From: an uncultured Acidobacteriota bacterium
GTDB lineage: Bacteria; Acidobacteriota; Terriglobia; UBA7540
Assembly: GCA_963804995.1 (NCBI GenBank)
Contig: CAWDSK010000002.1
Coordinates: forward strand, 512,001-576,000
DNA length: 64,000 nt
Direction: 5' to 3'
The position numbers and the translations under genes were made by a program. Below are positions 7,622 through 12,626 of the stretch, piece after piece (position 1 is the stretch's first letter; each line of letters starts with the position of its first letter). The notes beneath the pieces are model-generated. The model saw only the letters and a program-made list of their open reading frames with translations. It was not told the DNA's origin and ran no database searches.

Positions 7622-7635
7622 TGTTCGCTCCTATC

Positions 7636-9400
7636 CTAAAACAATCCTGAAACCTTCCCGGTCTTCACATCCACATCCACCCGGCGGAATCCCGGGTTGG
7701 ACGACGTGCCGGGCATCAAGCTGATGGTGCCCGCGCAGGGGCAAAGGAATTTGGCGCCCGAGTAAACCAGCACGTCGCGAATCGGCAGCACCCAGCCTTC
7801 GGGAACTCCCTTGAGCGCCGGATCGTGGCTCAGGCTCAGGTGGGTCTTCACCATCATGGTGGCATAGTCGGCGTACTTGGGGTCGGACTTCGAGCGCTTT
7901 GGATTTGGCTTCCGCTTCGGGCGTCCAGACAACTCCATCGGCGCCGTAAACTTCCTTGGCAATGTGCTCAACCCGATCGCGCAACTTCATCTCAAGCGGG
8001 TAGAGGTACTGAAATTTGACTTCGTCCCGGCAGGCGTCCAGTACCGCGTCCGCGAGCTCCAGCGCCCCCTCGCCGCCTTTGGCCCAGTGCTCGGAAGAGG
8101 CACAGCGTGCGCCCGTGGCTTCCACGGCCCGCCGCACCAGGGTGATTTCTTCTTTCGTATCGGTATTAAAACAGTTAATACAGACCACCGGATTGATTCC
8201 CGACCGGCGAATGATGCCCAGATGGTGCAGCAGGTTGGGAAGTCCCTTTTCGACGAGCCGCAGATTCTCGCGAGTGTATTCCTCTGCCAGCGGTAATCCG
8301 GGTGCGACGCGTGGACCGCCGCCGTGCATCTTGAGGGCGCGGATAGTGGTGGTCAGCACGGAGACGTTGGGCTTAAGCCCGCTGCACCGGCACTTGACGT
8401 TCCAGAACTTTTCGAAGCCGATGTCCGCTGCAAAGCCGCTCTCCGTGACGTGAAAGTCAAACATCTTCAGGCCCAGGCGGTCGCCGATAATCGACGACTG
8501 CCCCACGGCGATGTTGGCGAAGGGCCCGGCGTGCACCATGCAAGGCTGGTATTCAGCCGTGCTGCACAAGGTGGGGTTGATTGTGTTGCGCATCCAGGCG
8601 GCCATGGCGCCCGCAACTTCGAGATCCTGCGTGGTGACGGCATTCCCCTGCTTGTCGTAGGCGACGGTGATCTCCCCCAGGCGCTTCCGCAAGTCGGCCA
8701 GGTCCGTGACAATGGCGAGAATCGCCATCAGCTCAGAGCTGACCGTGATGGCGAACTTCGATTGCACCATGAAACCGTCTTGCTTGCCGCCGATACCGAT
8801 GATGATGTTGCGCAGCGCCTGCGCGCAGAAATCGATGACCCAACCCATTTCGAGGCGCGTGGGGTCGATATCCAGGCGGCGCGTCACGCCGTGCTGCTGC
8901 AACTGCTGGTCGCTGTAATTCCGTTCGTGCTGTAAGCGCGCGGTGAGCGCCACCATGGCCAGATTGTGGGCATTGGCAATGTCGTTGATGTCGCCCGTAA
9001 GCCCCAGGGAGAACTCCGTCATGGGGATCAGCAGGGCGTTTCCACCCCCCGCCGCCGTGCCTTTCACGTTCATCGTCGGGCCGCCGGAGGGCTGGCGCAG
9101 GCAGCCGCCCACGTTTTTGCCCCGTTTCCCCAGACCTTCGATCAAACCCAGGGAAGTTGTGCTTTTTCCCTCACCTAGAGGAGTGGGTGTAATGGCTGTA
9201 ACTTCAACGTATTTCCCGTCCGGGCGGTCTTTTAGTCTTTCGATGATCTTAAGGAAATCCAGCTTCGCCAGCCGCCCCATGGGGATGACTTCATCTTGTT
9301 GCAGGCCCAATCTTTCCTGCCATTCGTGAGGGCTGGGCATCTGGCGTTCTGCCGCCTCGGAAATTTCCCAGTCCTGCATCTTCGTCGCGTCGTACGCCAT
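7636..9400 (-). CDS. fhs: Formate-tetrahydrofolate ligase, +1 frameshift at ~7890
   Basis: [62 protein letters not shown]. The C-terminus [13 protein letters not shown] is in the second ORF. Confidence 0.95.
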
Positions 9401-11213: not shown

Positions 11214-11807
11214 ATGATGCTAGCCATGATCGGCCTGGGGCTTGTGGTGGGACTGGCCATCCTCGTGTTTTTGGTCGTGATTGTTATCGCCGTGGTTGGG
11301 TACTTCGTGGGCATTTACAACAGTCTGGTCACGCTCAAAAACGACATCGATCGCTCCTTCTCCAATATTGACGTGCTGCTGAAGCAGCGGCACGACGAAC
11401 TGCCCAAGCTCATCGACACCTGCAAAGGGTACATGCAATACGAACAGAAGACTCTCCAGGCGGTTACCGAAGCCCGCACCGCTTACCTGCGCGCCTCCAC
11501 GCCCGCCGAGAAGACTCAAGCCGATAACATGGTCACCGGCGCGCTCAAAAGCCTGTTTGCCGTAGCCGAAAAATATCCGGACCTCAAGGCCGATGCAAAT
11601 TTCATGCAACTGCAAGGGCGCATCACGGAACTCGAGGAAAAGATTGCCGGGCAGCGCGGCCGCTATAATGAAGACGTCAACGATTTCAATATCCGCATTG
11701 CTCAGATTCCCGCCAACTTCGTCGCGGGCTTCATGGGACTCCAGCCCCACGCCCTCTTCCAGGTTGCGGAAACCGACCGCGAAGACGTGAAAGTCAGCTT
11801 CACTTAG
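11214..11807 (+). CDS. lemA: LemA family protein (tandem paralogue)
   Basis: Same motifs; highly similar to the upstream copy. Confidence 0.93.
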   Translation: MMLAMIGLGLVVGLAILVFLVVIVIAVVGYFVGIYNSLVTLKNDIDRSFSNIDVLLKQRHDELPKLIDTCKGYMQYEQKTLQAVTEARTAYLRASTPAEKTQADNMVTGALKSLFAVAEKYPDLKADANFMQLQGRITELEEKIAGQRGRYNEDVNDFNIRIAQIPANFVAGFMGLQPHALFQVAETDREDVKVSFT

Positions 11808-11814
11808 TGCCAAC

Positions 11815-11843
11815 AAAAAAGGCCCGCTTGGGGGAGCGGGCCT
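11815..11843 (-). terminator. Intrinsic terminator with U-tract on the minus strand
   Basis: Stem AGGCCCGCT/AGCGGGCCT with a 6-nt loop; A6 on the + strand 5' side, i.e. a U-tract for a minus-strand transcript. Confidence 0.75.
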
Positions 11844-11881
11844 GGGGAAAGGAGGAAACCTGAAACGGTTTCAGTCCTATC

Positions 11882-11917
11882 TTATCTCTTCTTTTTCTTT
11901 GCCTTCTTCGCTGCCAT
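11882..11917 (-). CDS. Putative 11-aa lysine-rich micropeptide MAAKKAKKKKR
   Basis: ATG GCA GCG AAG AAG GCA AAG AAA AAG AAG AGA TAA; AAGGAGG Shine-Dalgarno 8 nt upstream; matching-strand terminator downstream. Confidence 0.65.
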   Translation of the reverse strand: MAAKKAKKKKR

Positions 11918-11960
11918 ATTGTTCCCCTCCTTTGTTGGAATTTTTTGGGGCCTACGCGAG

Positions 11961-12007
11961 AGACCAGTATTTGTGGTCTGGCGCGCTCTTACCACTATAT
12001 GTAGTAT
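11961..12007. promoter_or_regulatory. Tandem NrdR-box-like operators (11961-11976 and 11992-12007), with TTGACA on the minus strand at 12021-12026
   Basis: CCACTATATGTAGTAT matches acaCwAtATaTwGtg; a weaker AGACCAGTATTTGTGG lies 31 bp away. Confidence 0.55.
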
Positions 12008-12112
12008 GCTTCGAACAACTTGTCAAGCAAAATGTTGGGCAATATGTTCGGCGACGATGCGCCGCTATCTTCCGGACGGTTTCGGTTCGCCTTTTTGTCA
12101 CGAGGGACTTGT

Positions 12113-12461
12113 GTAGCGCTGCCCTTATGGATTTTGAATTTAGTAACTTGTTTCGATGCCGTGCGGGTGTAAGTAACCCCTCATCCGGCCTCCTACGTCA
12201 GCCACCTTCTCCCCTCGGGAGAAGGCTATTATCCGGTTCCGGCCAGGGGAAGGTTATATCGAAGCGCCCGCTGGCCAAATTGAAGACCCATTCTCTGCGT
12301 ATGCCGATGGAGCACCCCCTTGAATAACCGCCCTCTCCGAGGGGAGAGGGTGGACCGCCGCCGGCGTTTTCATCAGCCGGGGCGGGACGGGTGAGGGGTC
12401 ACTTGGGGGCTCGGGGCGTTTGAGAATTCCAGGAATTCAAAAACCATAAGGTCGGCGCTAC
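12113..12461. repeat. Composite REP/MITE-like element with ~28-bp terminal inverted repeats and internal hairpins
   Basis: gtagcgctgcccttatggattttgaatt ... gaattcaaaaaccataaggtcggcgctac; internal ccttctcccctcgggagaagg and ccctctccgaggggagaggg. Confidence 0.7.
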
Positions 12462-12626
12462 GCTTGTCTGGATTGCCTCAGTGAGAGGGTAGGAGTAGAA
12501 TCACCGCGCTTGCGGCCGCCAAGTGCGGAGTCCATGCGCACACCCGACCTGATGCTCTTAGCTGAGCCGATGAACCGATGGCCAGATCACCGGATCACCC
12601 GATCTCCCGATTCCCCCAGGTGCCCT

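Follow-up and report, generated by a model that had tools for sequence, protein, structure and literature searches.

A conserved 11-codon lysine-rich peptide gene with a candidate NrdR operator in an uncultured Acidobacteriota bacterium

NrdR is described as a repressor specific to ribonucleotide reductase (RNR) genes. What, then, could a pair of NrdR-like boxes be doing in front of an open reading frame (ORF) of 11 codons? The question is raised by a locus in a 64,000-nucleotide stretch (hereafter the window) of the genome of an uncultured Acidobacteriota bacterium (contig CAWDSK010000002.1, positions 512,001 to 576,000). The original prediction described here a self-contained minus-strand unit for a poly-lysine micropeptide, in a window devoid of RNR genes. 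Indeed, the single RNR match of the genome is on contig C6, and nrdR is on contig C3.

The unit sits between a convergent lemA gene (11214-11807, plus strand, Pfam LemA), a neighbour outside the unit, and a repeat element. Read along the minus strand, it begins with a -35 element, TTGACA (12026-12021), found at the same place in aligned loci. After a spacing of 17 bp comes the likely -10 element TACATA (12003-11998), which lacks the final T and lies inside box 1 in a register shared across loci. The two boxes, themselves strand-neutral, are supported by an RNR-trained matrix and by conservation. Box 1 (ATACTACATATAGTGG, 12007-11992) has six of six key bases, and box 2 (CCACAAATACTGGTCT, 11976-11961), 31 bp away start to start, has C4, A6, T11 and G13 with a middle TA. 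Folds of the loci predict a 5' leader hairpin (11986-11955) enclosing box 2. It is followed by the ribosome-binding site (RBS) AAAGGAGGGG (11933-11924), with AAGGAGG at 11932-11926; a Shine-Dalgarno (SD)-like motif precedes the ORF in 30 aligned loci. The ORF, MAAKKAKKKKR* (11917-11882), encodes six K, one R, three A and one M, hence seven basic residues and no acidic one. Behind it lie a near-invariant CU-rich, anti-SD-like element, TTTCCTCCTTTCCCCAGG (11858-11841), which is a candidate sRNA seed, and a conserved intrinsic terminator (11843-11813), with a 9-bp stem (11843-11820), a C-rich loop and a U-tract on the minus side only.

Every element named in the original prediction is thus at its place on the minus strand. 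The small hairpin that it also listed (11874-11860) forms in the predicted fold of this genome, but other genera do not share its sequence. Absent from it were the CU-rich element, which is the most conserved part of the unit, the box-2 hairpin, and a possible third box (12040-12025, strand-neutral) with six of six key bases, 33 bp upstream of box 1. As this third box has all six in only 4 of 42 loci, it was ruled out as a conserved part of the operator. Also outside the unit, a MITE-like element at 12106-12468 has 35-nt terminal inverted repeats and internal hairpins, and gives 362 BLAST pieces in the genome, 14 of them of at least 250 nt.

Is the ORF a gene? In relatives, the ORF, the RBS and the boxes are all kept. 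When 60 relatives were searched at the DNA level, the unit turned up in 27 of 28 congeners and in one other genus, with a conserved stretch running from just before TTGACA to the U-tract; in congener G010 (85% complete), only the paralog described below was recovered. Targeted retrieval added six more genera, which gave 42 distinct boxed-type loci from 8 genera. These loci are related by kinship and not independent of one another. The frame is intact in 42 of 42, at 11 to 14 codons, and its length varies by whole codons only, while the flanks vary by indels of 1-4 bases. Among 26 eleven-codon ORFs, the variant codon types comprise 10 synonymous and 4 non-synonymous ones, as compared to 17 and 73 possible single changes, and 8 of the 11 variable columns are third positions. 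Judged from these patterns, purifying selection acts on the peptide frame and the ORF is a selected gene; we consider it highly likely to be translated. Throughout the genome, only three SD-preceded ORFs of at most 40 codons contain at least 35% Lys: the studied ORF, its paralog and one unrelated frame. Lysine is encoded by 203 AAG and 60 AAA codons in the boxed ORFs, with an AAA-AAA pair in 1 of 42, a bias that would fit clean read-through better than stalling.

A short Lys-rich ORF followed by a hairpin and a terminator could also be the lysine-sensing leader peptide of an attenuator, and a same-strand MerR-type HTH gene does follow the Terriglobales boxed copy (L045-L050). Genes of this kind follow ihfA in Proteobacteria. 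Nevertheless, the downstream gene is the convergent lemA in 32 of the 42 boxed loci rather than a cognate same-strand operon, no lysine pathway gene is found among the identified neighbours, the alanine positions are conserved, and the boxes are of NrdR type. We therefore regard an attenuator as extremely improbable. On the other side of the unit, the upstream neighbour of the boxed copy is highly variable within the window's genus; thrS lies divergently upstream in several genera (L031, L235, L251, L252, L253).

We then come to the boxes. A single RNR, whose sequence is class II-like, and a single nrdR (TIGR00244, 200 bits) are encoded in the genome, and the RNR promoter carries two boxes 31 bp apart in 19 aligned congeners. 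From the RNR promoters of these 19 congeners, 38 boxes were taken to build an NrdR matrix, with the studied genome excluded. Scored in this way against the genome's own RNR boxes, a comparison that had been proposed for the locus, the peptide-gene boxes rank with them: among 7.55 million positions, box 1 (14.3 bits) is at rank 10 and box 2 (4.8 bits) at rank 695. In the whole 7.55 Mb, the only 31-bp pairs with a summed score of at least 14 are those of the RNR, which has the same motif at its promoter (40.3), and of the peptide gene (19.0).

Mutagenesis reported in PMC13584703 identified C4, A6, T11 and G13 as the critical bases of the NrdR box, with both boxes needed and a tolerant middle, and linkers of 14-17 bp are bound according to PMC12051234. 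At the studied locus, both boxes have the four bases. Box 1 keeps them in 42 of 42 loci, and box 2 keeps C4, A6 and T11 in 42 and G13 in 41 of the 42. The linker is 15 bp in all family loci, within the usual 15-16 bp; the Terriglobales boxed type has 14 bp, and most Binatia pairs have 17 bp. The middle AT is present in box 1; at that place box 2 has TA, and A8 is found in 15 of 42 loci. Box 2 is weak in the window's genus (negative score in 7 of 29 loci) and has six of six key bases in 7 of 14 loci outside it. In its critical bases and linker, the pair passes as an NrdR operator, and NrdR very probably binds it.

The locus resembles the NrdR operators of E. coli nrdAB, nrdHIEF and nrdDG and of S. 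coelicolor nrdRJ, as described in PMC13584703 and PMC12051234, in having two 16-bp boxes with C4, A6, T11 and G13. The 15-bp linker is likewise shared with RNR promoters, as may be the overlap with the promoter, where box 1 covers the predicted non-canonical -10, and the motif is that of the nrdJ boxes of its own lineage. In contrast, the gene controlled here would be an 11-codon peptide gene distant from any RNR. One direct NrdR target other than RNR has been described: topA of P. aeruginosa, where the box is single and the effect is activation (PMC4409342).

Other box pairs of the genome were also recorded. Two 32-bp pairs with scores similar to that of the peptide gene (19.8 and 19.5) precede DNA methyltransferases. 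In all, three 32-bp pairs (G000:C3:1235557, G000:C6:379895 and G000:C6:1011354), noted as the genome's best after the RNR and the peptide gene, stand before unrelated DNA methyltransferases: an N6/N4 enzyme (PF01555), a Dam-like D12 enzyme (PF02086) and an MT-A70 enzyme, the last adjoining a BglII-family endonuclease. The regulon thus seems to include enzymes acting on DNA here, and NrdR control of DNA methylation is possible in this genome. Listed together for the sites G000:C2:342346 and G000:C1:630788 are a 30-bp box pair near a GTCAA motif, alongside which no long ORF was found, and the genome's top NrdR-type box (24.5 bits), which has no partner. At the RNR locus itself (G000:C6:2005870-2006800), carD is directly upstream of the RNR gene, the first NrdR box overlaps TTTTCCACA, which we take to be DnaA-box-like, and the leader has a GCCGTTGCGGWGCCGG stretch conserved in congeners.

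A matched control for the box pair is available in the same genome. A second gene (G000:C2:775788-775823, minus strand) encodes a near-identical peptide, MAAKKKAKKKR*, between a convergent rmuC and a divergent VWA protein gene. It has its own TTGACA-17-TATACAT promoter, leader hairpin and conserved terminator, and its promoter is free of boxes (best matrix score -11). This unboxed type is the commoner one across the family. Since it adjoins rmuC or a UvrD-like helicase in Terriglobales-type genomes also, the unboxed copy is probably older. Of seven retrieved family genomes with two matches, six combine one boxed and one unboxed copy; in the seventh, the same unboxed copy is found on two contig ends.

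When loci were typed by their 3' end and terminator alone, independently of the boxes, both boxes with the four critical bases and the linker were found in 41 of 42 boxed-type loci versus 0 of 44 paralog-type loci in the same register. At the box-1 register, the unboxed paralogs also have C4 (38/44), A6 (42/44), A8 (43/44) and T11 (39/44). Because box 1 overlaps the -10 element and four of its six key bases are common to unboxed promoters, its conservation reflects in part promoter constraint. The features that discriminate the two types are T9 (41/42 versus 1/44), G13 (42/42 versus 7/44) and box 2.

Does the association recur elsewhere? In the Terriglobales boxed type, both boxes have the four critical bases in 14 of 15 loci. 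Among the Binatia relatives, a pair precedes 17 of 22 matches (16 at 33 bp and 1 at 31 bp), a denominator that includes L313, which is not a lysine ORF, and a count for which the pair rule was extended to 33 bp only after Binatia had been seen; these pairs mostly flank a canonical TATAAT. Among the ANGP1 relatives, a pair (31-32 bp) precedes 6 of 19, and several genomes carry two or three copies, boxed and unboxed. The background of the pair rule is about 1% (36 of 4000 random windows and 18 of 1385 TTGACA windows). All 5 genomes checked for nrdR and RNR have both. The RNR promoters of five genomes from other lineages show a pair in two (both Binatia), a single box in one, and no box within 1500 bases in the remaining two, one of which has nrdR just upstream, outside that stretch. 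As the boxes are placed differently relative to the promoter in each lineage, repeated gain or re-tuning is suggested, and we claim no order of events.

The peptide itself extends further than its boxes. Narrow patterns matched 50 of 401 class genomes (control 1) and, in a stricter RBS-anchored form, 6 of 301 phylum genomes. Among the GTDB matches listed (at least 120), the cousins are SD-led K/A/R frames of 10-100 residues, many with a visible promoter and terminator of their own and most without boxes. Their lengths form a continuum up to H1-like repeat proteins. The lineages among these matches are SAR11, Steroidobacteraceae, Xanthobacteraceae, Betaproteobacteria, Binatia, ANGP1, Planctomycetota, Patescibacteria, Bacteroidota and DPANN archaea. 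Of 149 pattern matches (L037-L186), we excluded 19 streptococcal protein ends along with 21 frames that were short or non-basic; L037-L040 either belong to longer genes or have no RBS. Box pairs were found in none of the 10 viral cousins evaluated out of 11 viral loci.

Some of these cousins have features of their own. In the Binatia relatives (L294-L315), an 8-bp 5'-3' stem that does not vary, CGCCUGAG/CUCAGGCG, encloses the ORF in the peptide RNA, and the CCCUCCU element of this RNA could pair with the RBS or with a 5' GGGAGGG, with no covariation. Two ANGP1 relatives (L323, L331) have tandem lysine micro-genes, the second K-rich short ORF lying within about 100 nt. On viral contigs (L340, L343, L346, L348), Lys/Arg ORFs of 21-23 aa directly precede a conserved gene beginning MKK.DRYNYVRVPRSDDEG, which we take to resemble a Cas4-type exonuclease.

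Is the unit transcribed? The -10 register reads TACATAT in 37 of 42 boxed loci and TATACAT in 31 of 44 unboxed loci. A promoter scan did not call the peptide-gene promoter, since TACATA, the hexamer at 17 bp from TTGACA, lacks the last T. T-less promoters are common in alphaproteobacteria and rare elsewhere (PMC7703639). A general class of T-less -10 elements was considered and is not supported in this genome, where hexamers without the T show no enrichment at 17 bp. The fold predicted for the RNA is better than those of 200 out of 200 shuffles (z -2.83). A stem forms around box 2 in most folded loci with differing sequence, and box 2 thus doubles as an RNA hairpin.

The original prediction called for a minus-strand transcript. 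RNA-library contigs of relatives do cover the unit, but they show neither strand, start nor level, and so hint only weakly at an RNA. Three metatranscriptomes contain relatives of the unit; as 0.04 of words matched, they represent relatives and not this strain. The contigs were aligned to a congener, and none spans the promoter, which carries no weight. In run X2, four contigs of different alleles all start at L010:1565 (window 11975) with the library adapter attached, and one contig of run X1 seems, by eye from its loose end, to start at the same base. One contig of run X3 extends 68 bases beyond the terminator. Relative to the start that TTGACA-17-TACATA predicts, the shared end lies about 16 nt downstream; it could be a processing site, a library effect or the sign of a wrong start prediction.

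The CU-rich element raises a second question, that of the RNA itself. The exact 18-mer TTTCCTCCTTTCCCCAGG occurs in 39 of 133 family genomes from 7 genera (control 0), with one copy per genome except for two in G006, and directly 3' of the ORF in every inspected locus. Two loci of one further genus retain only TTTCCTC. In the fold of this genome the element can pair with the unit's own RBS, and a cis lock of the RBS was considered; the pairing is predicted here but not conserved (mean probability 0.00-0.99 over 29 loci). The element stays unchanged where the RBS changes, with duplexes of -5.9 to -16.7 kcal/mol, and the own RBS is only at rank 1451 of 4525 candidate start regions as its partner. 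This unconserved and unremarkable pairing points to a role in trans or to a protein-binding site, and a near-invariant anti-SD element behind the stop codon means that the RNA may also be an sRNA.

Could the RNA then be the main agent, namely an sRNA of the Hfq type under NrdR control that silences mRNAs through its 3' anti-SD seed, while the ORF mainly stabilises or tunes it? The 18-mer is more conserved than the ORF and does not track changes of its own RBS, Hfq is encoded in the genome, and a CCCTCCT element is retained 3' of the ORF in the Binatia copies as well. Moreover, the RNA weakly matches Rfam MmgR/SuhB (RF00519; 24.7 bits, E 0.024), a score below the gathering score of 41 and hence outside the family; 20 cousin loci gave sub-threshold Rfam matches only. 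Both this sRNA and the unit have a CU-rich anti-SD stretch directly before an intrinsic terminator, but the unit carries a selected ORF and belongs to a different phylum. On the other hand, no conserved target emerged: a duplex ranking over start regions gave unrelated genes and repeats as top partners, and a genus-wide complement pattern matched 16 of 29 genomes with no shared gene beyond one protein pair and one recurring short frame. In addition, the element is missing, and the peptide kept, in the unboxed paralog as well as in the boxed copies of Terriglobales and ANGP1, and it is the peptide, not the RNA sequence, that recurs under NrdR boxes across phyla. An RNA acting as the main agent is therefore fairly unlikely. 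Nonetheless, the peptide and sRNA readings are not exclusive; as judged from conservation, the ORF and the 3' anti-SD element are both under selection.

The pairing of the RBS with the 3' element in some folds would also suit a type I toxin or antimicrobial peptide silenced by RBS sequestration. MR-22, a 22-aa peptide whose sequence follows the pattern of the SAR11-type cousins, kills E. coli externally at 16-32 ug/mL (PMC10847306); the accessible text of that study treats it only as a synthetic antibiotic and gives neither its genomic source nor a native role. Since the pairing is not conserved across loci, the unboxed copy has no such element, and no hydrophobic segment, signal, exporter or antisense partner is seen, a toxin is very unlikely.

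What, then, might the peptide bind? The preferred reading, to which we give somewhat better than even chances, is that of an NrdR-repressed, minimal histone-H1-tail-like polycation. Like the H1-like Lys/Ala proteins, i.e., Chlamydia Hc2 (PF07382), Pseudomonas AlgP and the C-terminal domain of PhaF, the peptide is acid-free, of Lys/Ala composition and built of KKAKKK units, of which its longer cousins are repeats. It differs by its 11 residues, as compared to tens to hundreds, and by its stand-alone gene in boxed and unboxed versions. The peptide has the Lys/Ala-rich, acid-free composition of HC2; the HC2 profile found no match in the genome, the 11-mer being below the length limit of the scan, and Pfam gave no family for four cousins of 21-43 aa. 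By profile the peptide gene is outside HC2, RF00519 and PF08213, yet by analogy it likely works like an H1 tail.

With seven basic residues out of 11, no fold and a continuum to H1-like repeats, charge-driven binding is indicated. Lys/Ala repeats bind nucleic acid in PhaF, where RNA binding is Lys-dependent (PMC12818456), and, in vitro, oligolysines of five residues affect how DNA condenses (PMC12019750). The sequence is compatible with DNA, RNA, the ribosome, polyphosphate or a nucleotide as the partner and cannot tell them apart; we prefer DNA to the ribosome or polyphosphate because of the link to NrdR boxes. The genome has three HU/IHF genes, so that it does not lack nucleoid proteins, which counts against the polycation reading.

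Among the other partners, the ribosome has precedents: bS22/mS38, bTHX and eL41 are tiny basic ribosomal proteins, and the peptide could be one of this kind. All are very small, very basic and missed by gene callers, and the peptide gene is in addition strongly conserved behind a strong RBS, in a 92%-complete genome in which PF08213 (bS22/COX24_C) has no match at E 1. However, the peptide is shorter and lacks a family motif, its length is variable, and there are at least two paralogs per genome. Besides, its NrdR boxes suit the supply of DNA precursors rather than ribosome synthesis, and no ribosomal operon is found among the identified neighbours. Cousins of 21 and 24 aa have no PDB match, in a test that is weak for low-complexity queries. 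Overall, we find a ribosomal role unlikely.

The box match, which would couple the peptide to RNR, also suits a peptide that binds NTP/dNTP or polyphosphate, or else an acidic surface on NrdJ or NrdR, and thereby tunes nucleotide metabolism instead of DNA packing. The H1-like AlgP associates with polyphosphate granules (PMC12818456, PMC9239181). But in the examined loci the gene is never beside nrdJ or nrdR, the viral cousins lie in unrelated gene runs without boxes, and a Lys/Ala 11-mer offers little specificity. We consider such a role distinctly unlikely.

Returning to the polycation, dATP/ATP-loaded NrdR would bind boxes 1 and 2, over the -10 element and the start site, and block transcription. 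NrdR leaves DNA at low dATP (PMC13584703), and the peptide would thus appear with RNR, during dNTP build-up: as dATP falls, its gene would be released together with nrdJ. An mRNA of about 175 nt would then be translated from the strong RBS, and the peptide, in the manner of a polyamine encoded by a gene, would bind the phosphates of nucleic acids irrespective of their sequence. A baseline amount would come from the unboxed copy, with the boxed copy adding more ahead of new DNA. The RNA itself probably has a second role, base pairing through its 3' CU element. As the peptide gene is paired with RNR-type boxes in three phyla, the peptide likely coats nucleic acid during DNA build-up. NrdR proteins also bind heterologous boxes (PMC13584703).

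A broader version is rather doubtful, and we put it forward tentatively: unannotated oligolysines of 10-16 residues might be minimal chromatin polycations of many bacteria, in at least three phyla, in two tiers, one constitutive and one NrdR-gated with dNTP synthesis, the gated mRNA being also an anti-SD sRNA in this family. If true, prokaryotes would have an equivalent of replication-dependent versus replacement histones. The box pair over the peptide gene in four lineages and three phyla, together with the methyltransferase pairs, would widen NrdR to a regulator of what accompanies new DNA. Few conserved genes that stand alone are as short as the peptide gene, which escapes both gene callers and tryptic proteomics and whose product belongs to a class found from SAR11 to DPANN archaea. 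In the literature, we found no description of the gene, nor of an NrdR-controlled peptide or sRNA, although RegPrecise, smORF supplements or subscription papers may list it; the accessible text of PMC4989314 mentions NrdR and Hc1 with no link between them.

Elsewhere in the window, a long ORF at 7631-9400 seems to shift frame near its end, its remainder being found in the overlapping ORF 7636-7971. Its product is presumably formate-tetrahydrofolate-ligase-like.
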